Of a stretch of DNA of 64,000 nucleotides, positions 1 to 57,063 are shown in pieces. Each line of letters begins with the position of its first letter. Within the stretch, counting starts at the first letter, position 1. Made by a program: the position numbers and the translations under genes. Under the pieces are notes generated by a model. It was not told the origin of the DNA, did no database searches, and saw nothing but the letters and a program-made list of their open reading frames with translations. The stretch comes from an uncultured Candidatus Saccharibacteria bacterium (lineage in GTDB: Bacteria > Patescibacteriota > Saccharimonadia > Saccharimonadales > UBA10212): assembly GCA_965231085.1 (NCBI GenBank), contig OZ246413.1, positions 344,971-408,970 of the forward strand. Direction: 5' to 3'.

Positions 1-1838
1 CGCTGCTGGTTAGAACCCATCAGTGAGCGAAGCACATAGTTCTTCTCGATAAACGGAATTAGGCCGGCACTAGAGCCGATAGTCTGGCTTAGTGAAGAGT
101 CGATATAACCAACTTCGTTAGCGTCAACCTCACCTGGTTCAAGTCGAATGCGAGCACTAACGCGCTCATTAACAAAATATCCGTCCTTGCCAACTTCGTT
201 ACCGGCACCTGCGATTGTTGACTGTTCCTCTTCAGCAGCGTCCAGGTAAACAATCTTGTCTGTAACCTTGGCTTTAACTGGCCAAGTGGCTTTAGTTTTT
301 ACTTCGGCTAGCTTTTTAGCAGCCGCCTCAGTAATAACTGCGCCTTTTTTAACAATTACTTTATCTTTGGCATCTGTTAGGTCGGCGCTAGCTATATGAC
401 CAACAGCCTCCTTAGCAGTTACAGCGTTAATAACTTTTCTATATGGGGTTTCGATAAAACCATATTCATTGATCCGAGCAAAACCGGCTAGGTTAAGCAC
501 CAGGCCAATGTTGGCGCCTTCTGGGGTTTCAACTGGGCAAATTCGCCCGTAGTGAGTGGCGTGGGCATCACGAACCTCAAAGCCAGCTCGTTCGCGGCTC
601 AAGCCTCCTGGCCCCATTGAGCTAAGACGTCGCTTGTGAGCAAGCTCAGATAGCGGGTTAATCTGATCCATGAACTGCGAAAGCTGAGAACTTGCAAAAA
701 ATTCACGAACAGCCGCTACAACTGGGCGAGCATTGATTAGCTGAGCCGGGGTGACTGTCTCGATTTCGCTCATACTCATTCGGTCTTTGGCGTTGCGCTC
801 CATTCTAAGCAAACCAATACGGAATTGACGCTGCACTAATTCACCAACGAGTTTAACTCGGCGATTAGCTAGTGAGTCAATCTCGTCAGCTGGATCTTGG
901 GTAACATTAAGACGAATGACCTCGGCGATAATAGCTACGAGGTCTTCGATGCGCATTGTTCGGTTTTCGATAGTGTTGGCAACATCAAGATTCAAACGCT
1001 TGTTGATCTTATAGCGACCTACGCGGCCAAAATCAAAGCGTTTGAAGTTGTAGAACATATTTTCTATTAGTCCACGGGCATTATCTACGGTAGCAAGGTC
1101 GCCTGGGCGTAGTCGGCGGTAAACTTCGATAAGTGCTTCGTTGGTGGTTTTGGTTGGATCCTTGGCAATTGTAGTATCAATGTAGCTAACCGGTCCTTGA
1201 TCAACGTGTTTAAAGGCCTCTTTAATCTGCTCGTTGCTCATACCAAGAGCTCGAAGCAAGGTGGTAACAGCAATTTTTCGCTTGCGATCAATCTTGACGT
1301 TTAGTACGCCAGCTGCCGAGGTTTCAAATTCTAACCAAGCGCCACGAACAGGGATAACTTTGGCACCGTAGATATTCCTACCACTGCTGTGCGGGTCGGC
1401 AGTAAAGAAAACGCCAGATGATCTAATCAACTGGCTTACTACAACGCGTTCTGCACCGTTAATAACAAAAGTACCGCGAGAAGTCATCCACGGGTAGTCA
1501 CCTAAATAAATTTCTTGATCTTTAACTTCGCCAGTTACTTTGTTGGTAAGCTCAACCGTTGCCTTTAACGGGGCTTCAAAGCTAACATTGTTTTCCCGAG
1601 CGTCGTTCTCGGACATTTTTGGGTCTTCAAAATGATACTTTTTGAACTTTATACTTAGCTTTGTGCCAGTGTAGTCATCGATTGGACTAATCTCTGATAA
1701 AAGCTCACCCAGCCCTTCTTCTACGAACCATTTAAAAGACTTATTTTGGTGATCTACTAGGTTTGGTGCCTCTAGTATATCGTCAGATTGTGTAAAGTAC
1801 GTTCGCGCTGAGCTAGCAGCAGCCGTGTTTTTTGCCAT
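1..1838 (-). CDS. rpoB: DNA-directed RNA polymerase beta subunit, N-terminal part (C-terminus beyond window start)
   Basis: Reverse-strand translation from the ATG (complement of 1836-1838) reads MAKNTAAASSARTYFTQSDDILEAPNLVDHQNKSFKWFVEEGL... and runs without a stop to position 1. Typical RpoB blocks are present (GLIPFIEKNYVLRSLMGSNQQR at the window edge). RBS AAGGGAGAG lies upstream. The ORF is absent from the supplied track because it is truncated by the window. Confidence 0.85.
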   Translation of the reverse strand, partial: MAKNTAAASSARTYFTQSDDILEAPNLVDHQNKSFKWFVEEGLGELLSEISPIDDYTGTKLSIKFKKYHFEDPKMSENDARENNVSFEAPLKATVELTNKVTGEVKDQEIYLGDYPWMTSRGTFVINGAERVVVSQLIRSSGVFFTADPHSSGRNIYGAKVIPVRGAWLEFETSAAGVLNVKIDRKRKIAVTTLLRALGMSNEQIKEAFKHVDQGPVSYIDTTIAKDPTKTTNEALIEVYRRLRPGDLATVDNARGLIENMFYNFKRFDFGRVGRYKINKRLNLDVANTIENRTMRIEDLVAIIAEVIRLNVTQDPADEIDSLANRRVKLVGELVQRQFRIGLLRMERNAKDRMSMSEIETVTPAQLINARPVVAAVREFFASSQLSQFMDQINPLSELAHKRRLSSMGPGGLSRERAGFEVRDAHATHYGRICPVETPEGANIGLVLNLAGFARINEYGFIETPYRKVINAVTAKEAVGHIASADLTDAKDKVIVKKGAVITEAAAKKLAEVKTKATWPVKAKVTDKIVYLDAAEEEQSTIAGAGNEVGKDGYFVNERVSARIRLEPGEVDANEVGYIDSSLSQTIGSSAGLIPFIEKNYVLRSLMGSNQQ

Positions 1839-5908: not shown

Positions 5909-6100
5909 TATCAGTCAATTATATCTTAAGCCGTAAACAGTGAACAGCCACACCTTGTGCATTTAGCCTGTTGATTATATAATTTCGGCATCTTTGTTGA
6001 GGTAAATGTTTCACACCTGAAGTTCGCTTCCAAAGATGTACATTTTGGCAAGCAGACAAAGACCAGATCGCAATCCGACCACAAGATTGGAGGATCCGAA

Positions 6101-6349
6101 ATGGCAGTAGACGTATTAACCGACCTGGAAGCACTGAAGCACAGGCGCCTGGCGGACAGCTACCGGCTCGGCAGCTGCACGGCCATCGTCGAGCGCGGCG
6201 AGTTCTGCGGGCGGCCCAATGTCCGTACCAGTGGGCAGGGTCACACCTGCGTGTCGGAGCACGCCTGCCAGGCGTGTGGCCGCGAACCAAGCGCTGCCGG
6301 CCCGAGGTGCAAGATGTGCCCGGCTTACGGTGAAGATCATGGCGAGTGA
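6101..6349 (+). CDS. Hypothetical small Cys-rich protein (82 aa), high-GC island
   Basis: RBS GGAGGA lies 6 nt upstream of the ATG and third-codon positions are strongly GC-biased. Seven Cys include CQAC and CKMC pairs (zinc-ribbon-like). The stop overlaps the next start (ATCATGGCGAGTGA). Confidence 0.45.
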   Translation: MAVDVLTDLEALKHRRLADSYRLGSCTAIVERGEFCGRPNVRTSGQGHTCVSEHACQACGREPSAAGPRCKMCPAYGEDHGE

Positions 6350-6806
6350 CTCAGACGCTCTCGCACGGGGGTTCGATCTCGAGCTCTTCGGTGGCACCGG
6401 TGGGCCTCGCCCCTACGCCAGCCCGGCCTTGGACACGTCCAAGTGGATTCCATGGCCGGCCGGCCCCGGGCTGTGCGACCGCTGTGGCAAGCATGCCGAG
6501 CAGCGAGCCAAGTCGATCATCTTCCATGATGATCGGGAGGAAGAGTACGTCGGCTACTGCCAGGCGTGCTGTGACCGCTTCAAGTGGGAAAAGGCACTCA
6601 GCCAACTCCCGACTGGGCCGATCGTCGTCTTCCCGGGCGATCAGCTACAGCTAGCCACCCTGGTCACGCTCCACGAACTCTTCATCGAGTCGAGGGGCTG
6701 GAAGCGGGTCAACCCTCCCGGCTACTGGAAGAACCCTCGGAGGTTCAGGCCGCCGCTGAAGCTTCACGATGCGGTGCGCTATGAGATCGAGACCGAGTCA
6801 GCCTAG
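6339..6806 (+). CDS. Hypothetical zinc-ribbon-like protein (155 aa; alternative start at 6219 gives 195 aa)
   Basis: Its start is translationally coupled to the upstream ORF and third positions are GC-rich. It carries CDRCGKH...CQACCDRF (CxxC...CxxCC). A perfect 11-bp stem hairpin follows at 6828-6860. Confidence 0.45.
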   Translation: MASDSDALARGFDLELFGGTGGPRPYASPALDTSKWIPWPAGPGLCDRCGKHAEQRAKSIIFHDDREEEYVGYCQACCDRFKWEKALSQLPTGPIVVFPGDQLQLATLVTLHELFIESRGWKRVNPPGYWKNPRRFRPPLKLHDAVRYEIETESA

Positions 6807-6827
6807 CTACACCGCTGACCACCCGAC

Positions 6828-6868
6828 GTAGAGACGAGTGAACATATGCCTCGTCTCTACTGTTTGCG
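6828..6868 (+). terminator. Intrinsic-terminator-like hairpin after the island's small ORF pair
   Basis: GTAGAGACGAG-tgaacatatgc-CTCGTCTCTAC is followed by TGTTTG. Confidence 0.45.
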
Positions 6869-6937
6869 AGAATAAGTCTGCTTGCCATTAACCTAATTAT
6901 AAAAAGAAACTCTCCATGTTGAGAGTTCATATCCTGT

Positions 6938-7282
6938 ATGGTGGAACTAAACGGAACACTCTCGAACCCTGAAGTACGGGTTGAGGTTCTGGAGCTTTTT
7001 GGCTTGGTTGAGCTGATTCTGACCAGAGGGCCCAGTAGCTCAGAACGTCCTGATCCACCCAAGCGGGCTGGAGAGATCAAGCAAACGGTGATCCATGTGC
7101 TCCAGATGGCCGAGAAGCCAATGAGGGTCATGGACATCCATAGAGCCTGCGAGGAGTACCTAGACAGACCAGTCAACCGGTCTACAGTCTCGGACTGCCT
7201 GATCAAGCACTCAAAGGGACAGAGGCAGTTGTTTGTAGCTACAAGTCGAGGGCTCTACTCGAAAATTGAATTCATCGCCTAA
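6938..7282 (+). CDS. Hypothetical small protein, winged-helix-like (114 aa)
   Basis: Intermediate GC. The helix-turn-wing pattern (IHVLQMAEKPMRVMDIHRACEEYLDRPVNRSTVSDCLIKHSKGQRQLFVATSRGLY) suggests a DNA-binding fold. No confident family assignment. Confidence 0.35.
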   Translation: MVELNGTLSNPEVRVEVLELFGLVELILTRGPSSSERPDPPKRAGEIKQTVIHVLQMAEKPMRVMDIHRACEEYLDRPVNRSTVSDCLIKHSKGQRQLFVATSRGLYSKIEFIA

Positions 7283-7401
7283 AACCACGAACTTGTTCAT
7301 AGTCTTGGGTGAAGCCCCAGGATTAACGTACCTGGGTATTTAAGACCTTGGTGGTCTTACGGCTCTTGCGAGCAATGTTCGAACAGCCGATAACGGAGAG
7401 C

Positions 7402-8079
7402 TCAGGCGCGGCTGGCAGCCACGTACAGCTTGACCTCATCGGCCTTCTCACGGTCGATCTTGCCAGTCTCGATGTAGTGGTCGAGGAGCTGGGAGAGCGT
7501 GAATGCTGAGATGACTCGGATGCCCTCCTCGTCGGTGAGCCACTCCGAGCCTCCCTGCTCACGATCGACCAGCACCAGGAGGTCCCGAACCTCCATGCCA
7601 GCTAGCTCAAGGATCGACACAGCCTCGATCTTGCTGTCGGCCTGGGTGATCAGGTCGTCGACCAGCAGAACCTTGCCGGGCAGATCCCAATTTCCTTCCA
7701 GAAGACCGGCGATCCGTCGTAGGTCTGCGGACTCTTCCTTGTAGAGCCGGATCTGATTCACCGGTGACCACGAGACGAGGCGCTTCATCAGCGCGTCGGC
7801 AAGCGGTTCACCGGCATTCGGGATGCCCGCCACGTACCGAAAGTCGAGACCTTTGTTCAAGTGGATCATCCCATAGAGCAGGTCAGCGATCTGTTCGATC
7901 AGCTCAGGTGTCAGCGGGCCCGGTTTCGGGTTGTCGGGAGTCCGCAGGTTGAGGTAGATCGGCGACAGTGGTGCATCCGGCTGGATCTCATGGAGCTTCA
8001 GTCGGAAAGCGCCGAACTTGATCGCGCCGACCTCGAAAAGCTGGTCGGCGACCGTAGCAAATCTTCCTTCGAGCAACAA
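7402..8079 (-). CDS. pyrE: Orotate phosphoribosyltransferase (type-I PRTase fold)
   Basis: 225 aa. The PRPP-binding motif VLLVDDLITQADSKIEA corresponds to VMLVDDVITAGTAI of E. coli PyrE, and LVLVDREQGG matches LISLDRQERG. The N-terminal KFGAFRLK block is also present. It has a TTG start immediately after the pyrF stop (operon). High GC. Confidence 0.7.
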   Translation of the reverse strand: MLLEGRFATVADQLFEVGAIKFGAFRLKLHEIQPDAPLSPIYLNLRTPDNPKPGPLTPELIEQIADLLYGMIHLNKGLDFRYVAGIPNAGEPLADALMKRLVSWSPVNQIRLYKEESADLRRIAGLLEGNWDLPGKVLLVDDLITQADSKIEAVSILELAGMEVRDLLVLVDREQGGSEWLTDEEGIRVISAFTLSQLLDHYIETGKIDREKADEVKLYVAASRA

Positions 8080-8087
8080 TCCTCCTT

Positions 8088-9068
8088 TCAGATCTGAGCC
8101 AGCACGATCGAGATGTCGTTGTGCATGGCCGAGGTTGCAGACCTCGCGGCTTCGGCGAAGTCCTCGCCATCACTGGCGAAGATGATGCCGCGAGAGCCGT
8201 TGATGATCATGCCCTGGTCGTGGCTGTTGACGCCCGCTCTCACGGACGCTTCCAGCTCCCCGCCTTGAGCCCCGATCCCGGGGATCAAGATAGGCATGTC
8301 GCCGACGATCTTCCGAACCTCAGCCAGTTCGGCAGGGTATGTCGCGCCAACTACGACAGCGCAGTTGCCGTTGTAGTTCCAGCCGCGCGTGATGTTCCTG
8401 GCCACGATCTGATACAGCGGCACTTCGCGCTCTTCGTAGTCGTAGAGCTTGCCCGGGTCGCCTTGCTCAGTGATCCGCAGATCCTGGAACTCGCCGGCAC
8501 CGGGGTTGCTTGTCCGAACGAGGACGATGACACCCTTGTCCATCTGGTCGAGGAACGGCTTCATCGCCTCCATACCGAGGTATGGATGCACCGTCACGGC
8601 GTCAGCGGCCTGAGCCGCCGCAACGTAGCCGGCGTTTGTGTTGCCGATATCGCCCCGCTTGTAGTCGAGGATGACCGGGACCTCGGGCGCTACATTGTGG
8701 ATGTAGTCGATCGTGTCTTTCAGGGCCACCAACCCCGAGAAGCCGAGCGCCTCGTAGAACGCCGAGTTCGGCTTGTACGCGCAGACGAGGTGCTTGGTCG
8801 CGTCGATGATCGCTTCGTTGAAGTCGAGAATCGTGTCGCCGAGGATCTCTGCCATGTCGCCATAGCTCAGACCCTCCGGCAGATCCTCTCCTCGCTGAAG
8901 AACCGCGAAGGCGGCCTGGGCGATCAGCATCTCGTCCACGCTGTACGACCCGCGGCTCTTGATGTGCCGAACGGGCAGCTTCTGGATGTCGCTGTCGAGA
9001 CCGACGCAGACGAACTTGCCCTCAGCCCAACGGGCTTGAAGCAAGTCCATGAAGTTGCGTTGTGACAT
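8088..9068 (-). CDS. pyrF: Orotidine 5'-phosphate decarboxylase, long (type 2, actinobacterial-like) form
   Basis: 326 aa with VGLDSD, DYKRGDIGNT (the D-x-K-x-x-D OMPdecase signature) and ILIPGIGAQGG. RBS GAGGAGA precedes the ATG. High GC. The plus-strand 314-aa ORF over the same DNA is a shadow. Confidence 0.8.
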   Translation of the reverse strand: MSQRNFMDLLQARWAEGKFVCVGLDSDIQKLPVRHIKSRGSYSVDEMLIAQAAFAVLQRGEDLPEGLSYGDMAEILGDTILDFNEAIIDATKHLVCAYKPNSAFYEALGFSGLVALKDTIDYIHNVAPEVPVILDYKRGDIGNTNAGYVAAAQAADAVTVHPYLGMEAMKPFLDQMDKGVIVLVRTSNPGAGEFQDLRITEQGDPGKLYDYEEREVPLYQIVARNITRGWNYNGNCAVVVGATYPAELAEVRKIVGDMPILIPGIGAQGGELEASVRAGVNSHDQGMIINGSRGIIFASDGEDFAEAARSATSAMHNDISIVLAQI

Positions 9069-9101
9069 ATTTCCGCTTCTCCTCTCGTAGTAGTCTGGCT
9101 T

Positions 9102-9383: not shown

Positions 9384-9468
9384 TGGTGGGGACGAAAGGA
9401 CTTGAACCTTCATGGGTTGCCCCGCTAGCTCCTAAGGCTAGTGCGTCTGCCAATTTCGCCACGTCCCC
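9384..9468 (-). tRNA. tRNA-Leu (anticodon UAG), CCA encoded
   Basis: Cloverleaf: acceptor GGGGACG/CGTCCCC, 3-bp D stem, anticodon stem CTAGC/GCTAG with loop CTTAGGA (anticodon TAG), long 13-nt variable arm, T loop TTCAAGT, 3' ACCA. Its 3' end faces the GC island. Confidence 0.85.
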
Positions 9469-9635: not shown

Positions 9636-12056
9636 TTATTGCTTATCTAGATTTAGCTTTAATTTGCCAACTGCCGCTTCAGCCATAAGCGCTAAGTTCC
9701 GTTTTACGTCTTCCATTTTGTTCAGCCCATAGCCTAGCGAATAGCCTGAATATTCGTCTAGGATTTCATCCATTATTTCAATTCTTTGTGCTAGATCGTA
9801 TTGACCAATAATCTGATGCATAATTATGCCCATTTGGGTTTCGTCAATAATTAGGTCAGCCTCCGAGTCTCGGGCGATATCTCTGCCGACGCGTCCTGCT
9901 AGCCGAAGCAATCTTAGATTGTAAATCGATTGATCTCTTTGCCACTCTTCCCAGCTATCAGCAGGATTTTCGTATTGTCTCGCCCGAGCAAGATAAGTCG
10001 CCGCTCTGTCTTTTGTGTAGGCTCTAGGTATTTTTGGCGCAATGAAGCCACCAGAATCGGAGGCTATATTCCTAAGCTGTGTAAGGCTACCAAGTCTAGC
10101 CAGGGCTTGAGATTCAAGCTGTCTGACTCTTTCTCTAGTTAGGTCCAGCTCATAACCGACCTGGTCGAGTGTATATGGTTCCTTGCCATCAAAACCAAAC
10201 CTTTGTCTTATAATTATCGCCTCTCTTTCAGGCAAGGAATCCACAACTGAGGCTATCTCTTGGGTTAACATCTCTTCTTCTGCTATTTCCTCGGTAGTCT
10301 GATGGTCAGGATTACGAGCATCTACAACCTGCAATCCCAGGCCCGATGGGTAGCCATCAAAACCCCATAATGCTAGTCTGGCCATGTCTTTAGCGCTACC
10401 ATGCCTGGCAAGATTTTTACGTTCAATAAAGTCTTCGATATCTTCTACCTCGGGGACGACTCGTTGCTCCCGAACGTACCGGCGCATAAAGCGGCCGATT
10501 TCCCGGGCGGTAGTGGCTGGAAAGCCTATTGAGCTTCCTGGTACTTCTGGTAGGTCCCACTCTTTTTCCAAAATTTGGTTATACCGCCTGATATCACGAC
10601 TATGAGTATCAGTGCGCTTAGAGTTGTATTTTACTCTAAGTTGTTTTAGTAAATAGGCATCATTGGCTAGAAGGTTAAGCCATAACTCGGAATTAATAAT
10701 CCGCTCAAGATTTGACCGCTTTGAAGTAGAGCCACCATTACCGACCCGCTCTGATCCAATTACCCGTCCGAGATGAACCGATTTTTCATCCATCACGTCC
10801 AGGCTAGTGTACTGATATTTGTTGGGTGAAACATCCATAAAATCAACGATAATCGACTCTAAGTTACCCGGTTTTTTACGAAGTACCCTACCTAGTTCTT
10901 GGGTCTTTCGAACACGCGAGGTAGTTGGGCACGTAGCGATTAAAAAGCTAGCTCGGCTGCTATCCCAGCCTTCGGCTATGGCTTTTACATATGTAAGAAC
11001 GTCAATTTGCCCGTTTTCAAAGGCCTGTAATATTCTTTGATTTTCTTCTTGGCTCAAGAAACTGCCGACCGCTCGGGCTCTAATAAATTTTTTAGTACCG
11101 TCTGCAAGCGTTATAAAACTGCCGTCCAGCTCATCGGCTAGAGACCGAGCGTGAACAGAATTCTCCCCCGGTACACAGCTAATAATTCCCTGGCGGCCAT
11201 CGGCTACAAAATTCCGGGCAAACTCTAGAGCACTGTCGTTTCGAGCCTTGAGGTCTATTAGTTTTTCAAGTTCCCGTTGCGTGTATTCGTCTGCATATTC
11301 GTCTAAGTCAGGGATTTCGGCATCGGTGGTATAAAGCAAGCATGTTACCGGCGCAACTAAATCGTTTTCGATAGCTTCTTTGAGTGATAATTCATGAATT
11401 GGTGTTTCAAAAATTTCGTTGACACTTTTTCCAACGCGATATTTTGGAGTGGCAGTAAAACCAATTTTTGTGGCTTTTGGAGATATGCTAATTAAATTAC
11501 GCTTTGTCACTGCCCCAAGACTCTTATGTGCCTCGTCAGCCAAAATAACGTCAAACTCTCCCAGCTCACCAGTCTGAACAAAGTTATTCATTCCAGCGTA
11601 GGTCGCAACGACTACCTTGTCGGTTTTTGTAGCTTTTGATCCACCATAATGCTTGCCTACGTCTGCTGGGCTAAGTCTTTGGGCAAATTTTGCCAAGCCT
11701 TTATCTTCAATATCGCCGGACAGCTGGCTAACCTGAGTTCGCATGTCTGCTAAAACCAAAACTCTTAAGCCGCTTCCGGCAAATATTTCGGCTAGTTTGG
11801 CAATTAGATATGTTTTTCCGGTTGATGTTGGTAGCTCAACATATCCCCGGTTATAACCCATAGCAAGGGCTTCTGAAATATCAAAAAAAACCTCCTGTTG
11901 ATGAGGGTATGCCTCGTCCTGATCATCAAGCCAATGTTCACTTCTGAAGTATTGGTCTAAGGCAAGAGCGGGGCCTTCTAGATTTTCTTCTTGCGAGAAA
12001 ACTCGTACGCCAGATTCAAACGGGGACGAGTTTGCTCGCTCTATAGCCGTATTCAC
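9636..12056 (-). CDS. SF2 (DEAH-type) helicase fused to a sigma-70 region 4 domain
   Basis: 806 aa. The N-terminus has helicase motifs I (PTSTGKTY), II (ILADEAHK), III (FTATP) and VI (QELGRVLR). Residues about 600-655 read LPEREAIIIRQRFGFDGKEPYTLDQVGYELDLTRERVRQLESQALARLG, closely matching sigma-70 region 4.2 (compare E. coli RpoD [48 protein letters not shown]). The C-terminal roughly 150 aa are unassigned. Confidence 0.75.
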   Translation of the reverse strand: MNTAIERANSSPFESGVRVFSQEENLEGPALALDQYFRSEHWLDDQDEAYPHQQEVFFDISEALAMGYNRGYVELPTSTGKTYLIAKLAEIFAGSGLRVLVLADMRTQVSQLSGDIEDKGLAKFAQRLSPADVGKHYGGSKATKTDKVVVATYAGMNNFVQTGELGEFDVILADEAHKSLGAVTKRNLISISPKATKIGFTATPKYRVGKSVNEIFETPIHELSLKEAIENDLVAPVTCLLYTTDAEIPDLDEYADEYTQRELEKLIDLKARNDSALEFARNFVADGRQGIISCVPGENSVHARSLADELDGSFITLADGTKKFIRARAVGSFLSQEENQRILQAFENGQIDVLTYVKAIAEGWDSSRASFLIATCPTTSRVRKTQELGRVLRKKPGNLESIIVDFMDVSPNKYQYTSLDVMDEKSVHLGRVIGSERVGNGGSTSKRSNLERIINSELWLNLLANDAYLLKQLRVKYNSKRTDTHSRDIRRYNQILEKEWDLPEVPGSSIGFPATTAREIGRFMRRYVREQRVVPEVEDIEDFIERKNLARHGSAKDMARLALWGFDGYPSGLGLQVVDARNPDHQTTEEIAEEEMLTQEIASVVDSLPEREAIIIRQRFGFDGKEPYTLDQVGYELDLTRERVRQLESQALARLGSLTQLRNIASDSGGFIAPKIPRAYTKDRAATYLARARQYENPADSWEEWQRDQSIYNLRLLRLAGRVGRDIARDSEADLIIDETQMGIIMHQIIGQYDLAQRIEIMDEILDEYSGYSLGYGLNKMEDVKRNLALMAEAAVGKLKLNLDKQ

Positions 12057-12105
12057 GAGACATATTTTAATATAATACTAACTTTCTGTCAATTTAAGCT
12101 AGGGG

Positions 12106-12660
12106 TCAGTCTCTATTTTTTCTATAAAACACCAGCTTAGCGTCGCCGTAGGTTTTTTCGGCAGCTATTTCGGTCTTTTCGTACTCTGGGGCTGCATACT
12201 TACCGGGGCACGACAATACTGCTAGACCTCCCTTTTTAACATGTCGCTTGATCAGGGTTTCTGTTATTGCCTCTTGCAAATCATCAAAAGGCGGGTCAAT
12301 CATCACAATATCAAATTTCTTATCAACGTTATGACTACTCCAGCCGCTAGTGTTTGCTCTAACTGCATCAATTTTCTTTTGCAAGTGATGCTCTATGATA
12401 TTTTTATCTAAAGTTGCATGGGCAGAGCGATCCTGGTCGATCGCTATTACATGTTTAGCGCCGCGGCTAACAGCTTCAATCGATAGGGCTCCGCTGCCAG
12501 CAAAGGCGTCTAAGAAAGTTAGCCCTTCTACGTCACCAAGAATGTTAAATAATGCTCCTCGAACTTTTTCACTCATGGGATGTGTTTTATGCCCATGATG
12601 CTGTGTAATGACCTGTCCACCTAAAGTCCCGGCGATAATTCTCATAATTCTATGATACAC
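12106..12660 (-). CDS. rsmD: 16S rRNA (guanine966-N2)-methyltransferase
   Basis: Contains the SAM-binding motif DAFAGSGALSIEAVSRGA and DPPF. The likely true start is the internal MRIIAG (about 12645). Confidence 0.7.
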   Translation of the reverse strand: MYHRIMRIIAGTLGGQVITQHHGHKTHPMSEKVRGALFNILGDVEGLTFLDAFAGSGALSIEAVSRGAKHVIAIDQDRSAHATLDKNIIEHHLQKKIDAVRANTSGWSSHNVDKKFDIVMIDPPFDDLQEAITETLIKRHVKKGGLAVLSCPGKYAAPEYEKTEIAAEKTYGDAKLVFYRKNRD

Positions 12661-12688
12661 CCTCGAATATATCCTGATAAATGAAGTA

Positions 12689-12714
12689 GGGGCGGCCCGT
12701 GTAGGACCGCCCCC
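12689..12714 (-). terminator. GC-rich hairpin downstream of the high-GC secreted-protein gene
   Basis: GGGGCGGCC-cgtgta-GGACCGCCCC. On the minus strand it is followed by UACUUCAUUUAUC. Confidence 0.45.
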
Positions 12715-12727
12715 GTGTTGTCCGCTC

Positions 12728-13117
12728 TTACGTCGAGCAGGACTCGTGCGCCGGCTTGCCCCACACCGTGGTTGCGTCCACGACGGTGACGTTCAGCCCC
12801 TTGATGAAGCACCTCACGTCCCAGTTGTAGACGATCACCGTGGCATGGTCGCTGGCGACCACAGTCGTGTGACCGTGCGCCGACACGACCGCATTGCCGG
12901 AGGCAATGGCAGTCGCACCCTTGTCGATGGACACGCAGCCGTTCTTGGAGACGACCACGACGACGCGCCCGGTGTAGGCCGACTGCTTGGTCGGGTCGGG
13001 GCAGGACGTCAGGTAGAGGTTGGTCGGCTTCGGCTTGTTGGCCGCGCTGGCCACGCCCGTGAGGGCGAGCATGGCGGCAACGCCGACGAGAACGAGACCG
13101 ATGAGCTGCTTACGCAT
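12728..13117 (-). CDS. Secreted small protein (signal peptide, 4 Cys), high-GC cassette
   Basis: 129 aa. Sec signal MRKQLIGLVLVGVAAMLALTGVASA with an AxA site. Repetitive V/A/T-rich beta-like segments and GC-rich third positions. RBS GGGGAAG. The surrounding DNA is low GC. Confidence 0.6.
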   Translation of the reverse strand: MRKQLIGLVLVGVAAMLALTGVASAANKPKPTNLYLTSCPDPTKQSAYTGRVVVVVSKNGCVSIDKGATAIASGNAVVSAHGHTTVVASDHATVIVYNWDVRCFIKGLNVTVVDATTVWGKPAHESCST

Positions 13118-13203
13118 GACTTCCCCTTTTCCGCGTTGTGCGGGTTGGTTGCGGGTGGAAGAGCGGTCCCCTTGACTATTGCTAGCCTTTGAGACTAAAA
13201 AAG

Positions 13204-13231
13204 ATTATATCAGATTGCTTCGATTTGTCAA
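13204..13231 (-). promoter_or_regulatory. Near-consensus sigma70 promoter driving the high-GC secreted-protein gene
   Basis: On the minus strand: TTGACA, a 16-nt spacer, then TATAAT (plus-strand tgtcaa 13226-13231 and attata 13204-13209). A roughly 90-nt leader reaches the ATG at 13117. Confidence 0.5.
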
Positions 13232-13233
13232 TA

Positions 13234-15270
13234 CTAGTTAAGGCTAGTTATTGCCCGGAGCTTACTTATCCGCTCAGCTAAATGCGGGTAATCAGTCAAC
13301 TTGTTTTTTCTATCTAGAAATTCTTGGGCCGCGCTTCGAGCCGATGCGATCAGTTTTGAATCGGTAAGCTTGGCAACTCGTAAATCTAATGCTCCGCTTT
13401 GAACCGTTCCATAGATAGCTCCTGGGCCCCGAAGCTCTAGGTCCAGCTCGGCCAGTTTAAAGCCGTCGCTCATAGTCTCTAGTGCCCTAAGCCGTTGACT
13501 CGGGGCTTTGCTATCGCTCATCTCTAAGTAACAATAGCTTTGATGCGCCCCCCGGCCCACCCGGCCCCTTAGCTGGTGGATTTGAGCCAGCCCGAACCGC
13601 TCGGCCCCAACTACTAGCATGACTGTTGCGTTTGGTACGTCCACTCCAACCTCTATAACCGTGGTGCTAACTAAAATATCGTACTTTTTAGCTATAAAAT
13701 CCTTCATAATTTTTTCTTTTTCTTCAGATTTCATCTTGCCATGAAGCATTGCCACCTTGCGGTGCTTAAAATCGTTATTTGCAAGTCGCCCGTAGGTTTC
13801 CTCGACTGATAAACCCTTGCTCAGATCGTTTTGGGTAATTAGAGGACAAACTACAAACATCTGACGACCCACTTTTAATTGGCTGTCTATCTTCTCATAT
13901 AAAGTTTTTCTTGAGTTTGGAGAAGTAACTTTTGTTTCTATTGTTTGACGACCAGGCGGTACTTCGTCCAGAACGGAAACATCTAGCTCGCCATATAAGG
14001 TAAGCGCTAGGCTCCTCGGGATTGGAGTGGCAGTTAGATGTAGTACGTGGGGCATGTGCCCAGCCTTGGCCTGAAGTTTTTTTCTTTGCTCAACCCCAAA
14101 ACGATGCTGCTCGTCAACAATAATCAAACCAAGACTATGCATATCAACCTTTTCACTAATGAGTGCGTGTGTGCCAACAATCATCTTTACTCTGCCTGAT
14201 TTTATTTTTTTATAAATCAGCGTCTTGGCAGCGGGCTTAAGGCTACCTACCAGTAGGGCAAGTTGGTCAGCGTGCCCGACACTGCTTAGTAATTTATGCA
14301 TTGTTTCTGCATGTTGACGGGCAAGTATTTCCGTTGGTGCCATGAAAGCAACTTGGTAACCCTGCTCCATGGCCATAAGGCCTGCCATAACCGCAACCAC
14401 TGTCTTCCCAGAGCCGACATCTCCCTCAACTAAACGGTTCATGGGATGTGGCTTCTCAAGATCTTGATATATTTGCCAGATTACTTTGCGCTGCGCTCCA
14501 GTTAATTTGAATGGGAGCTTGGCTACAAAGTCTTTTGCCAGATCTTGCTTAAACGGGATTAACACACTCTTTTCGTGAGATAATTCGTACTTATTAAGTA
14601 GAGCGGCAAGGGTTAGCTCAAAAACTTCTTCAAGCCCCAAACGTTTTTTAGCAAGCTCTAGTTCCGCAGCAGATGATGGAAAGTGCATTTCTGAGACTGC
14701 TTTTTTATAGTCGGTTAGCTTTTCCTTTTTTATCAGCCAAGCAGGCAAATGCTCGTTAAGTTCAAAATTATCTGTAAGTACTGTCCTGATTAACTTCCGT
14801 ATGGCCGATGACTTGAGCCCCTTTGTTTCACGATAAACCGGAATAATACGCGCGGTATTTACCGGGAAGTCGCTCACCAATTCCATCGACGGGTTTAATA
14901 TGCTAAACCGGTTTCTGCGCAGAGCATAGTCTCCGGAGATATAATATTTCACTCCAGGTTTTACTGCTGCTGAGCGATATGGCTGATTAAACCAAACCAG
15001 CCGAACGCTACCTGTAGCGTCAGAAGCAACTGCTTCGGTAATATGCATACCCCTGCGAACATACCGACCTTTTACTTCTTTTATAGTCACTTCAAGAGTT
15101 ACGGGGCCGGGATGCATACTAGCAATCGATGCAACGTTAGAATAATCATCGTACCGACGTGGATAGTAATCAACTAGATCACCAACTGTTCTTATGCCAA
15201 GAATGGTCAGTTTTTTTGCTAACTCATCACCCACCCCTTTTAGTTCGGTAATGTTTGCGCCAAGATTCAT
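13234..15270 (-). CDS. recG: ATP-dependent DNA helicase RecG
   Basis: 678 aa with an N-terminal wedge domain and helicase motifs (GDVGSGKT, DEQHRFGV, C-terminal QLRGRVGRG). Confidence 0.9.
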   Translation of the reverse strand: MNLGANITELKGVGDELAKKLTILGIRTVGDLVDYYPRRYDDYSNVASIASMHPGPVTLEVTIKEVKGRYVRRGMHITEAVASDATGSVRLVWFNQPYRSAAVKPGVKYYISGDYALRRNRFSILNPSMELVSDFPVNTARIIPVYRETKGLKSSAIRKLIRTVLTDNFELNEHLPAWLIKKEKLTDYKKAVSEMHFPSSAAELELAKKRLGLEEVFELTLAALLNKYELSHEKSVLIPFKQDLAKDFVAKLPFKLTGAQRKVIWQIYQDLEKPHPMNRLVEGDVGSGKTVVAVMAGLMAMEQGYQVAFMAPTEILARQHAETMHKLLSSVGHADQLALLVGSLKPAAKTLIYKKIKSGRVKMIVGTHALISEKVDMHSLGLIIVDEQHRFGVEQRKKLQAKAGHMPHVLHLTATPIPRSLALTLYGELDVSVLDEVPPGRQTIETKVTSPNSRKTLYEKIDSQLKVGRQMFVVCPLITQNDLSKGLSVEETYGRLANNDFKHRKVAMLHGKMKSEEKEKIMKDFIAKKYDILVSTTVIEVGVDVPNATVMLVVGAERFGLAQIHQLRGRVGRGAHQSYCYLEMSDSKAPSQRLRALETMSDGFKLAELDLELRGPGAIYGTVQSGALDLRVAKLTDSKLIASARSAAQEFLDRKNKLTDYPHLAERISKLRAITSLN

Positions 15271-54824: not shown

Positions 54825-55355
54825 TTACTTTGAGTAGTTGGCAATTGCCTCAGATATAACTTTTTTGGCTGCTTCAGCGTTGCCCCAACCTTTAAACTCA
54901 ACTTTTACACCCTGCCAGTTGTTCTTCCAGTCTTTGTAGTGGGTGTAAAAATGTTCTACCCGTTGCTTAAAAGCGGGATCTAGATCTTCAACTTCTTTTA
55001 CTGAGTCTTTACTAATATCTTTAGCCGGTACGCAGATCAACTTTTCATCGCCCTCACCATCATCAATCATATAAAGCACACCAATTGGTCTGGCTGGCAC
55101 GACTGCACCGTGAACTACCGGCTCATCAATTACCAGCAGAACATCCAGTGGGTCGCCATCATCACATAGGGTTCCAGGCACATAGCCGTAGTCTGCCGGG
55201 TACGTTGCAGTTGTGGCATTAACTCTATCTAATGTCAGTCGCCCAGTACCTTTATCAATTTCATATTTGTTACGGCCACCGCCTTTTTGAATTTCAATAA
55301 TAACATTCACTTCATCAGGTGCATTTTTACCAGTGGGAACAGGTTGGTTTGACAT
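54825..55355 (-). CDS. ppa: Inorganic pyrophosphatase
   Basis: 176 aa with DGDPLDVLV and YGYV motifs. Confidence 0.85.
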   Translation of the reverse strand: MSNQPVPTGKNAPDEVNVIIEIQKGGGRNKYEIDKGTGRLTLDRVNATTATYPADYGYVPGTLCDDGDPLDVLLVIDEPVVHGAVVPARPIGVLYMIDDGEGDEKLICVPAKDISKDSVKEVEDLDPAFKQRVEHFYTHYKDWKNNWQGVKVEFKGWGNAEAAKKVISEAIANYSK

Positions 55356-55499
55356 CTTGGCCTCCTAAACTTTCTAGTACAAAATCGTACTCTTGTTAAT
55401 TAGTATTTCCCGCTCAACAACTCCCTACAACGAAAGTTTGGCGGCTGAATCTCCTTATTCTGGTTTTATTTTACAGTATAGACTGGCCTTATAAAAGAA

Positions 55500-55535
55500 A
55501 AGAGGGCCGATCCGTGCCGAAGCACGAACCGACCC
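55500..55535 (-). terminator. Strong intrinsic terminator ending the tRNA operon
   Basis: On the minus strand: GGGUCGGUUCGUGC-UUCG-GCACGGAUCGGCCC followed by UCUUUUCUUUUAU. Confidence 0.65.
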
Positions 55536-55542
55536 TGTAGAA

Positions 55543-55615
55543 CTGCGCGCGCGGGGTTCGAACCCGCGTTACCTGCACCGTTGGCAGGGGTTCTAGGCCA
55601 CTGAACTAGCGCGCA
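55543..55615 (-). tRNA. tRNA-Arg (anticodon ACG) with atypical A33 and G37
   Basis: Acceptor TGCGCGC/GCGCGCA, D arm GTTC...GAAC, anticodon stem CCTGC/GCAGG with loop CAACGGT, T loop TTCGAAC. No CCA is encoded. It directly abuts the upstream tRNA. Confidence 0.65.
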
Positions 55616-55688
55616 AGCGGCTGAGAGGGCTCGAACCTCCGACCTCCCTCGATCATGAGGGCGCTCTAGCCTACTGAGCTACAGCCGC
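55616..55688 (-). tRNA. tRNA with an abnormal 6-nt anticodon loop (CAU or GAU family; Met/Ile-like body)
   Basis: The body closely resembles tRNA-Ile(GAU) (D arm TAGCTCAGTAGGCTAGAGC; AGGTCGGAGGTTCGAGCCCTCTC). The anticodon region CCCTC-ATGATC-GAGGG is one nt short of the canonical 5-7-5 arrangement. Confidence 0.5.
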
Positions 55689-55740
55689 GGGCAAATCTTG
55701 GTGCATATGCTGCAACTACAATTTCTACCCAGAACTACTA

Positions 55741-55814
55741 AGTCGGTGATGGGGCTCGAACCCACGACCTCCTGCATGGCAAGCAGGCGCTCTAGCCAAC
55801 TGAGCTACACCGAC
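55741..55814 (-). tRNA. tRNA-Gly (anticodon GCC)
   Basis: Acceptor GTCGGTG/CACCGAC, anticodon stem CCTGC/GCAGG with loop TTGCCAT, T loop TTCGAGC. No CCA is encoded. Confidence 0.8.
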
Positions 55815-55865
55815 CGGCAAATCTTTTGGAGCTACTACTAGCTACGACAAATTGTTGCCACTTAA

Positions 55866-56030
55866 TGGGCGTGGGAGGAATCGAACCTCCGACCTCTAGT
55901 TTCTCTATCTGACGTTTCAATTTGATGTCTTGAAACTTCCCCGAGCGTCCCCGGGACTCTCAATCATCTTTACTTTATCAGCAAAACAGAGAAAAACAAC
56001 TAGCACTCTAACCAACTGAGCTACACACCC
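55866..56030 (-). tRNA. tRNA gene interrupted by a roughly 90-nt insertion in the anticodon arm (putative intron or disrupted tRNA); identity undetermined
   Basis: The 5' half GGGTGTGTAGCTCAGTTGGTTAGAGTG-CTAGT and the 3' half ACTAG-AGGTC-GGAGGTTCGATTCCTCC-CACGCCC-A form a canonical acceptor/D/T/anticodon-stem cloverleaf. Between them lie 98 nt that fold into helices of their own (UUCUCUG...UAGAGAA; GUUUCAA-9nt-UUGAAAC; CCCG...CGGG). Confidence 0.55.
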
Positions 56031-56082
56031 TTAAACCAAAAATTATTCTACACCCAAATAGCCTATATCGCAACTATGTTTT

Positions 56083-57063
56083 CTAGTCGCCGTAAAGAGT
56101 TTGGACGGCCTTGTTGCTAGTCTTTTGGTGATTCTCAATATATTCACGGATCATAAGCGCCGCTGTCGCACCTTCGCCAACCGCACTAGCTATCTGCAAG
56201 GTTGCTCCACTGCGCACATCGCCAGCAGCAAAGATCCCTGGAACCTTGGTCATTAGGTGTTGATCGGTCTTAATAAAATTACGCTCATCAAGCTCCACGC
56301 CGCTTCCAGCCAAGAACTTAGTGTTTGGGTCTAGGCCCACAAATACAAACACACCGTCAGTTACAAAATCTACTTTTTTACCGGTAGTCTTATCTGTGCC
56401 GACAACTTTTATCACTTTCTTACCGTCGCCAACAATCTCGTCAGTTGTAGTGTTCATATGTACGGTAATTTTATCAGCATGTTTTTTTAAGTCTTCTTGC
56501 AGTACATCGCTGGCTCGCAAGCTGTCGCCACGAACCAGTATATCTATATGCTTAGCAAATTTGGTTAAGAATATGCCTTCTTGAATTGCCGAATTGCCGC
56601 CACCCACCACCACAATTTTTTTATCTCTATAAAATGCACCATCGCAGGTTGCACAGTAATGTACCCCTCGAGCGTAATATTCTTGCTCGCCGGGCACACC
56701 AATTTTGCGGTACTCGCTACCAGTTGCCACCAGCACGGCTTTAGCCAGATAATCTCCGCTAGTAGTATCAAGCCTGATAAGTTCGCCCTCGCTCTTTACG
56801 CCCATAACTTCACCCAGCTCGATCTTGGCTCCAAAACGTTCAGCTTGCTTACGCATAGCCTCAGCTAGTTCTAAGCCAGCAATCCCTTTTTCAAAGCCCG
56901 GGTAGTTATCTACCCAGTCAGTCACCGCGGCTAGACCGCCAATTGCCGCTTTTTCAAATAATGTAGTATCGATATCCTCCCGGCAAGTATAAATAGACGC
57001 GCTCAGGGCAGCTGGCCCCGCCCCCACAATGACTAGGTCATGAATCTTTTTTTCTTCCGCCAC
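56083..57063 (-). CDS. trxB: Thioredoxin reductase
   Basis: 326 aa with FAD/NADPH GxGxxG motifs and the redox-active CATC. Confidence 0.85.
   Translation of the reverse strand: MAEEKKIHDLVIVGAGPAALSASIYTCREDIDTTLFEKAAIGGLAAVTDWVDNYPGFEKGIAGLELAEAMRKQAERFGAKIELGEVMGVKSEGELIRLDTTSGDYLAKAVLVATGSEYRKIGVPGEQEYYARGVHYCATCDGAFYRDKKIVVVGGGNSAIQEGIFLTKFAKHIDILVRGDSLRASDVLQEDLKKHADKITVHMNTTTDEIVGDGKKVIKVVGTDKTTGKKVDFVTDGVFVFVGLDPNTKFLAGSGVELDERNFIKTDQHLMTKVPGIFAAGDVRSGATLQIASAVGEGATAALMIREYIENHQKTSNKAVQTLYGD

Follow-up and report, generated by a model that had tools for sequence, protein, structure and literature searches.

A GC-rich gene for a small exported protein between recG and rsmD is probably a long-standing resident of Saccharibacteria

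A compositional step confined to one gene

Why does a single GC-rich gene lie between recG and rsmD in a Saccharibacteria genome of 45% GC, and was it brought in from another organism? We addressed this question in the window, that is, the whole 64,000-nt stretch of DNA that was analysed. A first-pass annotation had described a GC-rich patch with a 129-aa open reading frame (ORF) between the two genes and explained it as a host-derived, actinobacterial single-gene insertion. ORF coordinates and GC profiles agree with the description of the patch. The gene and its neighbors are as follows:

12106..12660, minus strand: rsmD-type methyltransferase gene, the conserved downstream neighbor (PF03602, E 1.5e-40)
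12728..13117, minus strand: coding sequence of the exported protein, 129 aa plus stop, GC 0.65, GC3 0.90
13234..15270, minus strand: recG, the conserved upstream neighbor (Pfam RecG_wedge, DEAD, Helicase_C, RecG_dom3_C)

The GC content of 200-nt segments is 0.62-0.68 over 12700-13199 and 0.41-0.47 in most flanking segments. By codon position, the 129-aa ORF has GC values of 0.57/0.49/0.90, with C more frequent than G at third positions (C3 > G3). Whole-gene GC3 is 0.38 for rsmD and 0.42 for recG, and that of 49 long ORFs outside an island at 6.2-9.1 kb is 0.28-0.50. A GC3 gradient toward the slot was sought in 40-codon bins of both neighbors and no rise was found, with values of 0.45 in the two recG bins adjoining the slot (0.20-0.62 along the gene) and 0.30-0.45 in rsmD. 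The step in GC3 is sharp, and GC-richness is a property of the gene, not of the surrounding DNA. Independent assemblies of several other samples show the same arrangement, so it is not a misassembly.

General translational selection was considered as the cause of the high GC3 and ruled out, because tig, clpP and a GAPDH-like gene in the window, all presumably highly expressed, have ordinary GC3. A second GC-rich island is present in the window, at 6.2-9.1 kb.

The coding strand

The patch had been said to contain only one ORF. The 129-aa gene is real, but there are antisense ORFs as well, the longest of 148 aa:

12746..13192, plus strand: antisense shadow ORF, 148 aa, not a gene; GC by codon position 0.84/0.49/0.59

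Could this plus-strand ORF be the real gene? It is the longer of the two, and exact look-up in a protein collection retrieved its product for this genome (P0142; NCBI and Logan; 669,327-bp contig) as the sole product of the stretch, the 129-aa product being absent for this genome from the same collection. Its GC values by codon position, however, form no coding pattern, and it has neither a promoter nor a Shine-Dalgarno (SD) sequence. In the homologous loci L013, L014, L019 and L021 no antisense stretch free of stops is as long as the gene, and all homologues were called on the opposite strand, with common invariant cysteines and signal peptides. The chance that the 148-aa ORF is the gene is practically negligible.

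That the minus strand is coding follows from the GC3 pattern, from the location of promoter, SD and terminator on this strand, from the 16 homologues with four invariant cysteines and an AHG motif, and from the pLDDT of the AF2 core; the antisense ORFs in the patch are shadows of the high-GC3 gene. Gene callers can choose the wrong strand, as in this collection, which has the antisense ORF only for this genome, and the family is therefore probably under-counted in protein databases.

Signals for expression

The gene had further been described as a unit with its own consensus promoter, a ribosome-binding site (RBS) and a GC hairpin after the ORF. Each element was found, and the near-consensus promoter, the SD-like site and the terminator-like hairpin support in silico a candidate single-gene unit:

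13204..13231, minus strand: sigma-70-type promoter, TTGACA-16 nt-(TG)TATAAT, 12/12 matches, TG before the -10 box
13118..13197, minus strand: predicted 5' UTR of ~80 nt, with transcription expected to start near 13197 from the -10 box
13166..13195, minus strand: predicted 5' stem-loop of the transcript, in both MFE and centroid folds
13120..13128, minus strand: Shine-Dalgarno-like AAGGGGAAG, 2 nt before the ATG
12688..12714, minus strand: GC-rich hairpin, likely intrinsic terminator, 11 pairs (9 G-C), loop of 5

The promoter begins 3 nt past the recG stop codon and is the only perfect match within 12000-14000, a region with 4 promoter-like sites against 2.0 expected from shuffles. TTGACA or TTGACT with a -10 box also precedes the homologues in L001, L012, L013, L016, L018, L019 and L021, and the -10 box lies 60-90 nt from the start codon in all homologous loci with enough upstream DNA. 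Both promoter and 5' UTR are low in GC. Relatives retain a stem of the CTCTGGGAG/CTCCTGGAG type at this position, with changes on both sides in at least one sequence for 5/8 pairs; the window and L001 versions of this region align poorly to the others, and the window 5' UTR aligns poorly with most relatives.

The RBS GGGGAAG can be read directly at 13126..13120, and the homologues have AAGGAGG or GGAGG at the SD position. Past the hairpin the T-run is weak (ACTTCATTTA). Similar hairpins, mostly followed by proper T-runs, stand after the stop codon in the 10 homologous loci with downstream DNA (L021 included). Judged by consensus matches, the layout of promoter, long 5' UTR with a 5' stem, SD and hairpin recurs across loci.

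An Rfam scan of 12600-13300 returned noise only. The window mRNA has a structure z-score of -3.95, and the scores of family genes (about -1 to -3.8) do not differ clearly from those of control genes (about -1.1 to -3.1). Once the control genes gave similar scores, a specific conserved RNA structure within the ORF was dropped as a candidate; there is no sign in the ORF RNA of anything other than the generic stability that comes with GC.

A small exported protein with a repeat core

A Sec signal peptide and four cysteines had been reported for the product, and both hold. Two parts of the protein can be placed on the sequence:

13043..13117, minus strand: signal peptide, residues 1-25, MRKQLIGLVLVGVAAMLALTGVASA-A (the hyphen marks the cleavage site predicted by the AXA rule)
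12773..12940, minus strand: core of ~7 8-residue repeats, residues 60-115, from periodicity and AF2 strands

The signal peptide, read solely by the -3/-1 rule, consists of a charged n-region (MRKQ), the hydrophobic core LIGLVLVGVAAMLALTGV and the AXA motif at ASA-ANKP (hyphen at the cut), which would leave a mature chain of about 104 aa. AF2 places a helix at residues 7-16, followed by a low-confidence linker. The N-termini of relatives carry a signal of this type or else a lipobox (L-A-G-C-G-G). The cysteines, at positions 39, 61, 103 and 127, are invariant in the alignment of 16 family members, and the AHG motif is common to the family. A Sec-type exported protein with four cysteines is thus supported in silico.

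The repeats read GCVSIDKG, ATAIASGN, AVVSAHGH, TTVVASDH, ATVIVYNW, DVRCFIKG and LNVTVVDA. In the family alignment, hydropathy has autocorrelation peaks at lags of 8 (0.49) and 16 (0.55), and from residue 61 onward short strands follow one another at intervals of ~8 residues in the AF2 model. The model, built from 16 sequences, has a mean pLDDT of 81.4 with block means of 88-97 over residues 31-110 (an earlier run with 3 sequences was poor, pLDDT 53). A Foldseek search with it gave nothing significant, the best E values being 2.6 in the PDB and 0.74 in BFVD (viral); among the non-significant matches were FapC, ice-binding proteins, bactofilin, CAP and TBCC beta-helices. Based on the repeat pattern and these weak beta-helix matches, the core most likely stacks as a small beta-solenoid or beta-roll, and two cysteine pairs, predicted as Cys39-Cys61 and Cys103-Cys127, probably tie on the N- and C-terminal caps.

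Searching PDB sequences with the family profile returned only a chance WD40 match (E 0.92). The window protein matched no Pfam-A family at E <= 1, contrary to the earlier suggestion of a DUF3060-like protein, and its Pfam, NCBIfam and PHROGs scans gave nothing usable.

A rare family at a conserved position

Relatives were sought in a 5.8-billion-protein word index, with HMMER over the full set of 1.84 billion representative proteins, and in phage, plasmid, IMG/VR, GTDB-representative and JGI scans. The HMMER scan found ~14 relatives of 130-160 aa, all metagenomic, and the relatives amount to about 14 clusters in 15 billion proteins. No true relatives were found by pattern scans with the family in GTDB representatives, JGI contigs and IMG/VR (the single match, L020, was rejected as a tandem-repeat protein that is no family member), nor was there a tblastn match in phage and plasmid records. 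The gene is one of a rare family, so far undescribed, that encodes small exported proteins and has no Pfam or NCBIfam model, and because this family is so rare, "conserved" refers here to one clade only.

Contigs were read for 11 relatives, those apart from P0005 (for which no contig is recorded), P0004, P0008 and P0011. All 11 are DNA of 43-53% GC; nine have the gene beside recG and/or rsmD, and in two (L002 and L017) it adjoins ruvB. The order recG-[gene]-rsmD was found in L001, L013, L014, L018, L019 (68.7-kb contig) and L021 (290-kb contig), whereas in L015 the gene was read upstream of rsmD and in L016 downstream of recG. None of the related contigs showed an empty recG-rsmD junction; in more distant Saccharibacteria the slot holds an unrelated 278-aa cytoplasmic gene. 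The nearest GTDB representatives of the window RsmD are Candidatus Saccharibacteria MAGs, and among the family clusters looked up a single organism name is on record, that of an NCBI "Patescibacteria group bacterium" MAG (L012). All the relatives are listed as "hypothetical" proteins. Family members occur only in low-GC contigs whose gene neighborhoods are of the Saccharibacteria type.

The compositional anomaly recurs as well. GC3 of the family gene is 0.60-0.90 in 12/12 loci, compared to 0.38-0.63 for adjacent genes, where the single neighbor at 0.63 is a 69-codon recG fragment in L014. Homologues in the recG-rsmD interval thus have elevated GC3 in every case, which by the first-pass annotation's own reasoning contradicts an insertion from the host.

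The capture itself would have been recent, of a single gene from a high-GC actinobacterial host, placed between recG and rsmD and not yet ameliorated. The GC of 0.65, GC3 of 0.90 and C3 > G3 do resemble high-GC Actinobacteria, and the second island could be taken as a further trace of such transfer. But none of the related contigs (0/11) has high-GC surroundings, the one named organism is a Patescibacteria MAG, and the same slot and anomaly occur in contigs with RecG only 64-78% identical to that of the window. A scan of 12400-13500 found no direct or inverted repeats flanking the gene, there is no integrase among the neighbors and no adjacent tRNA, the nearest being tRNA-Leu at 9384..9468, and even the pyrF-like gene of the other island has Patescibacteria, not Actinobacteria, as its closest named relatives. 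A literature search on Saccharibacteria host-to-epibiont transfer returned nothing on this locus. We regard recent capture from the host as highly unlikely.

Composition kept or renewed over divergence

The window and L001 are 78% identical in RecG, 80% in RsmD and 75% in the family protein. Fourfold sites in their flanks have an identity of 0.34, compared to 0.25 by chance, which corresponds to a retained signal of 0.12, so they are nearly randomised. Under neutral decay from 0.9-1.0, GC4 of the gene should by now be about 0.65-0.68, whereas the observed values for the pair are 0.90 and 0.85 (binomial sd about 0.06). With flank sites nearly randomised and GC4 kept at 0.85-0.90, the composition has been either actively maintained or repeatedly renewed. 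Fourfold identity within the gene is 0.66, against 0.40 by chance, and is thus higher than in the flanks, which recent common origin could explain as well as synonymous constraint.

Across loci, the Spearman correlation of family identity is 0.30 with RsmD and 0.06 with RecG, and L013 and L019, 78% identical in RecG, share only 37% in the family protein. Measured in this way, family identity does not track flank identity.

Given GC-richness in every lineage examined, we favor a long-resident Saccharibacteria gene, not a recent import, with its composition held up by selection that acts on the transcript or by some process specific to the locus, and not as the trace of an un-ameliorated transfer. 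We put the probability of this reading at roughly 0.6.

Renewal from outside is the main other way to read the same numbers. The position would then be a slot for swappable alleles, refilled by repeated homologous recombination through the recG/rsmD arms, or beside ruvB, from an unsampled high-GC pool, e.g., high-GC Patescibacteria or their mobile elements, so that each copy is young and still GC-rich. The incongruence of alleles and flanks also fits repeated replacement from outside, and two allele classes, Sec-secreted and lipoprotein, occupy the same slot. The sharp compositional boundaries, the higher synonymous identity of the window-L001 pair in the gene than in its flanks, and an rve integrase gene adjoining the family gene in L012 alone point the same way, as do contig breaks within about 110 nt of the gene in 4/12 contigs (L002, L012, L015, L016), as seen at strain-variable loci. 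On the other hand, no high-GC donor context was seen among the 12 loci, and phage, plasmid and IMG/VR searches found no relatives. Conservation of the low-GC promoter and 5' UTR follows the slot and not the allele, and the gene identity of the window-L001 pair (75%) matches that of the flanks (78-80%). Allele swapping is therefore possible but, in our judgment, unlikely as the source of the composition.

The incongruence could also be a sign of recombination, with GC-biased gene conversion acting at a hot spot in a fast-evolving surface-protein locus. PMC4450053 reports higher GC3 for bacterial genes that recombine. Conversion tracts should, however, bleed into the flanks, and recG and rsmD have no GC3 gradient up to the slot. 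The rise needed, from 0.4 to 0.9, also exceeds the effects reported for gene conversion in bacteria, which are a few per cent of GC3. We consider this origin improbable.

A proposed resident gene for an abundant surface protein

For the favored long-resident gene, the following account can be proposed. The gene would be transcribed alone from a strong sigma-70 promoter directly after recG, into an mRNA that has a stem-loop at its 5' end and a strong ribosome-binding site and that ends in a hairpin; from this layout high expression and an abundant protein are predicted. The product would be exported by Sec, or lipid-anchored in sister lineages, which suggests a location in the cell envelope or at the surface. 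The family protein diverges much faster than its neighbors, and its alleles do not track them, as might be expected if selection diversified a surface protein and its alleles were exchanged to some extent. The role at the host interface that was proposed earlier would agree with the export signals and with the speed of divergence. As the cause of GC-richness, we would prefer selection for a GC-rich, nuclease-resistant and long-lived mRNA.

A stronger version holds that the host-like codon usage is itself adaptive, since the DNA or mRNA must function in, or pass for, high-GC host nucleic acid, for example during expression in the host cell or in escape from host factors that target AT-rich nucleic acid. 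We think this very doubtful. Its milder form, in which selection maintains a "compositional island" that mimics horizontal transfer, seems to us evenly balanced between true and false.

Implications

The locus is a warning for the calling of genomic islands, as a one-gene step in GC3 resembled a textbook host-to-epibiont transfer and comparison pointed instead to a resident gene with a composition kept high, or kept renewed, in many lineages. It also adds a fast-evolving family of exported proteins and lipoproteins with strong expression signals in environmental Saccharibacteria. These features make the family a fair candidate for an abundant protein of the envelope or of host contact, in bacteria whose surface biology has hardly been described. 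If the constraint on synonymous sites is real, the gene would offer a clean natural test, in a minimal genome, of selection on mRNA composition or of GC-biased processes.

Comparison with known systems

With horizontally transferred genes and islands, the 129-aa gene shares a sharp one-gene step in GC and GC3 against a 45% GC genome. Lawrence and Ochman reportedly modeled such compositionally atypical genes by amelioration. Unlike in that model, the anomaly here is common to a gene at the same position in contigs with saturated flanking synonymous sites, and searches and a border scan detected neither a donor lineage nor signatures of mobility.

DUF3060 and the BLB8/JUQZ-1 family (NF053514) are, like the window protein, small secreted bacterial proteins. 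The NCBIfam match to NF053514 is weak (E 0.031; 14.5 bits against a cut-off of 40 bits), and an identity as "JUQZ_fam_ocin" was dropped on the basis of this score and the absence of any resemblance to the JUQZ-1 peptides printed in PMC11747845.

A closer likeness is to proteins built of tandem octapeptides (xGNATVxA) that form beta-helices, such as the C-terminal beta-helix of T4 gp5 in the phage baseplate hub (PF22178, phrog_430) and the YdcK beta-solenoid repeat (PF18836). The family shares with them the period of 8, the positions for small residues, Gly, Asn, Asp and His, and the alternating Val/Ala positions. Several repeat stretches give its profile matches to tandem GNATVxAx octapeptide proteins (E 1e-6 to 7e-4), and these proteins in turn match PF22178, PF18836, FapA and phrog_430, none of which is matched by the window protein itself. 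The octapeptide proteins matched are 170-350 aa long, belong to the cytoplasm or the virion and have near-perfect repeats, whereas the window protein has ~7 degenerate repeats and four conserved cysteines, is exported, and is ~104 aa when mature. As the gp5 helix is an intertwined trimer, its likeness covers the repeat period and not the oligomeric state of the window protein.

Curli CsgA, Pseudomonas FapC and capped beta-solenoids such as ice-binding proteins are likewise small, secreted, all-beta repeat proteins, and the CsgA repeat also contains G-N-x-A. The CsgA repeat is about 19-23 residues long, unlike the 8 or 16 of the window protein, and no csg- or fap-type partner gene was among the neighbors read beside the family gene. 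Compared to CsgA and FapC, the cysteine-tied termini of the window protein suggest a capped monomer rather than a polymerising subunit.

Locus and expression signals of the recG-rsmD family gene

The first-pass annotation described a GC-rich patch with a 129-aa ORF between recG and rsmD, and this was confirmed: GC reaches 0.62–0.68 across ~12700–13199, in a window with an overall GC of 45%. The ORF is the window's only copy of what we term the family gene, and its neighborhood contains the following features.

12106..12660, minus strand, rsmD (PF03602, E 1.5e-40)
12714..12688, minus strand, hairpin of 11 bp with 9 G-C pairs, followed by a weak T-run
12728..13117, minus strand, family-gene ORF (129 aa), inside the GC-rich stretch
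ahead of its ATG, minus strand, GGGGAAG, read from sequence
13231..13204, minus strand, promoter with perfect TTGACA and TATAAT boxes spaced 16 nt and TG before the -10 box, 3 bases past the recG stop codon
13234..15270, minus strand, recG (RecG_wedge, DEAD, Helicase_C, RecG_dom3_C)

The promoter, GGGGAAG and hairpin noted earlier are thus all present, and in silico evidence supports the proposal that the protein is secreted and has a strong promoter of its own. The codon-position GC of the ORF is 0.57/0.49/0.90. Third-position GC (GC3) is 0.38 in rsmD, 0.42 in recG and 0.28–0.50 in the 49 long ORFs of the window outside a second GC-rich island (6.2–9.1 kb), and presumably highly expressed genes have ordinary GC3. 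The GC3 of recG and rsmD does not rise toward the slot between them, indicating that the compositional step is sharp. No flanking repeats, tRNA or integrase were found at the borders of the gene in the window. Elsewhere, GC rises locally to 0.546 (500-nt window) at 55501–56000, where the long ORFs leave a gap (55355..56083).

An exact look-up in the protein collection retrieved the antisense product (P0142) and not the 129-aa protein.

12746..13192, plus strand, antisense ORF of 148 aa, a shadow of the family gene

The antisense ORF was rejected as a gene: its codon-position GC (0.84/0.49/0.59) is a non-coding pattern, and its frame closes before the full gene length in four related contigs (L013, L014, L019 and L021). 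Therefore, the gene calls behind the collection picked the wrong strand, which is why the first word-index search did not return the query itself. Such mis-calling may be systematic for high-GC3 genes of low-GC genomes.

The family gene recurs beside recG and rsmD in relatives

The contigs of eleven relatives, read for gene neighborhood, gave the decisive result. The gene lies between recG and rsmD in six of them (L001, L013, L014, L018, L019 and L021), with an additional DUF1861 gene at the locus in L018; it precedes rsmD in L015 and follows recG in L016. The order is tyrS-recG-x-gene-rsmD-murT-gatD in L019 (68.7 kb) and PBP-tyrS-recG-gene-rsmD-UPF0259-hisS-tig-clpP-rpoB in L021 (290 kb), the latter syntenic with the window. 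The gene adjoins ruvB in L002 and L017; in L012, which NCBI lists as a 'Patescibacteria group bacterium' MAG, it adjoins an rve integrase. The window RsmD has Candidatus Saccharibacteria MAGs as its nearest GTDB representatives. Searches of phage/plasmid records and pattern scans of IMG/VR, GTDB representatives and JGI contigs did not reveal a family relative, and all family clusters looked up are metagenomic 'hypothetical protein' or unnamed. Family-gene contigs are mostly just 1–3 kb long, and 4 of 12 (L002, L012, L015, L016) end within ~110 nt of the gene, which may reflect strain-level variability breaking assemblies. Just downstream of the gene in L002, still in GC-rich DNA, a small ORF (573..745, plus strand) reads as an Arg/Lys-rich segment and then one hydrophobic helix (…RRNRKKREAKRRRQRR…LLGITVIGLILATFIVVPFF).

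In more distant Saccharibacteria (RecG 58–66% identical) the slot holds an unrelated, conserved cytoplasmic 278-aa protein, whose match to zinc-dependent phospholipase C (PF00882, E 5e-5) falls below threshold.

L003 3168..4004, L004 3171..4004 and L005 3171..4007, gene for the 278-aa slot protein

GC-richness is probably maintained or renewed rather than a transfer scar

All eleven relatives' contigs have an overall GC of about 45–53%, and GC3 of the family gene is raised in every one (0.83–0.90 in Sec-type alleles, 0.60–0.75 in lipoprotein alleles); adjoining genes have GC3 of 0.38–0.63, the maximum being a 69-codon recG fragment in L014. The suggestion of a host-derived, actinobacterial cassette is not supported: homologues in the same slot with the same local GC are what the first-pass annotation itself named as refuting it.

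Between the window and L001, identity is 78% for RecG, 80% for RsmD and 75% for the family protein. Turnover at fourfold sites of both flanking genes is almost complete: identity is 0.34 vs 0.25 by chance, a retained signal of 0.12 (bootstrap interval -0.01 to 0.25). Under a rough, unfitted relaxation model, GC at fourfold sites (GC4) that evolved neutrally from 0.9–1.0 should now be ~0.65–0.68, whereas 0.90 (window) and 0.85 (L001) were observed (binomial sd ~0.06). The direction of this difference is clear and speaks against an un-ameliorated transfer scar.

Fourfold identity within the family gene is 0.66 vs 0.40 by chance, above the flanks. Family identity correlates little with flank identity (Spearman 0.30 for RsmD, 0.06 for RecG): L013 and L019 share 78% in RecG, 72% in RsmD and just 37% in the family protein, and for L013 and L014 the values are 60% (family protein) and 57% (RsmD). 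This incongruence and the higher fourfold identity fit either old allele classes with synonymous constraint or allele exchange and replacement. The main rival explanation is that the allele is repeatedly replaced from a high-GC source that has not been sampled. A third candidate, biased gene conversion, is less likely given the sharp boundaries and the effect size.

The whole-transcript fold of the window gene has z = -3.95, and control genes scored identically gave similar z-scores. Fold energy per 400 nt is about -150 to -190 kcal/mol for the family mRNA vs -98 to -127 for flanking genes; generic stability accompanying GC content is the sole distinction from controls. The predicted start of the transcript carries a conserved 5' stem in which some changes are compensatory; L013, L015, L018, L019 and L021 share a leader, G(T/A)CTCT(G/A)G(G)AG ... 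CTC(C/T)T(C/T)C(T/C)(G/A)GAGC ... ACCTC ... AAGGAGG, that folds as this stem. An Rfam search of the window region alone gave no match. We prefer the explanation that selection would favor a monocistronic mRNA that is GC-rich, long-lived and highly expressed, and that would encode a fast-evolving envelope protein.

Other features of the window

6000–9100, second GC-rich island (GC 0.54–0.63, ORF GC3 0.61–0.82)
6219..6806 and 6938..7282, plus strand, two island ORFs
7402..8079, minus strand, pyrE-like gene in the island
8088..9068, minus strand, pyrF-like gene in the island
9384..9468, minus strand, tRNA-Leu, ~300 nt past the island's right edge
9636..12056, minus strand, 806-aa protein gene between rsmD and the island

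The syntenic L021 has rsmD-UPF0259-hisS without this island. Among named proteins, those closest to the pyrF-like product come from Patescibacteria (Uhrbacteria, Saccharimonadales, Paceibacterota; 54–58% identity), with no actinobacterium among the named matches, and unnamed metagenomic matches reach 72%. The pyrF-like protein itself is matched at 100% on a public 669,327-bp contig (NCBI and Logan). The 806-aa protein has an unusual architecture, an N-terminal ResIII/SWI2-SNF2-type helicase (residues ~49–400) and Sigma-70 region 4 (606–655, E 3.9e-14).

A family of small octapeptide-repeat proteins

The signal peptide and four Cys of the first-pass annotation are present: by rule, the N-terminus (MRKQ, hydrophobic core, ASA|A) fits a Sec signal. 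No Pfam family matched at E <= 1, and the protein belongs to no curated family. Word-index search of 5.8 billion proteins gave two relatives, a full HMMER pass with a three-sequence profile over 1.84 billion representatives eleven more (130–161 aa), and a second word-index search two further proteins. In the 16-sequence alignment, Cys 39, 61, 103 and 127 and an A-H-G motif are invariant, and the N-terminus is of two types, one with a cleavable signal peptide and the other with a lipobox (L-A-G-C-G-G). Residues 60–115 form a core of about seven 8-residue repeats (GCVSIDKG / ATAIASGN / AVVSAHGH / TTVVASDH / ATVIVYNW / DVRCFIKG / LNVTVVDA), with hydropathy autocorrelation peaks at lags 8 (0.49) and 16 (0.55). 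These are undescribed small exported or lipid-anchored octapeptide-repeat proteins, a modestly interesting Saccharibacteria family whose conserved compositional anomaly mimics horizontal transfer.

The AlphaFold2 model (16 sequences; mean pLDDT 81.4, block means 88–97 over residues 31–110) shows, from residue 61 on, short strands at intervals of ~8 residues, and the predicted fold is probably a capped beta-solenoid. Foldseek found no significant neighbor of the model in PDB or BFVD; its non-significant matches are beta-helices/beta-solenoids (ice-binding proteins, CAP, TBCC, FapC, bactofilin). Weaker matches to the family profile are long proteins of near-perfect GNATVxAx octapeptides. The models that these proteins hit are the T4 gp5 C-terminal beta-helix, the YdcK beta-solenoid repeat, FapA and phage baseplate-hub families.
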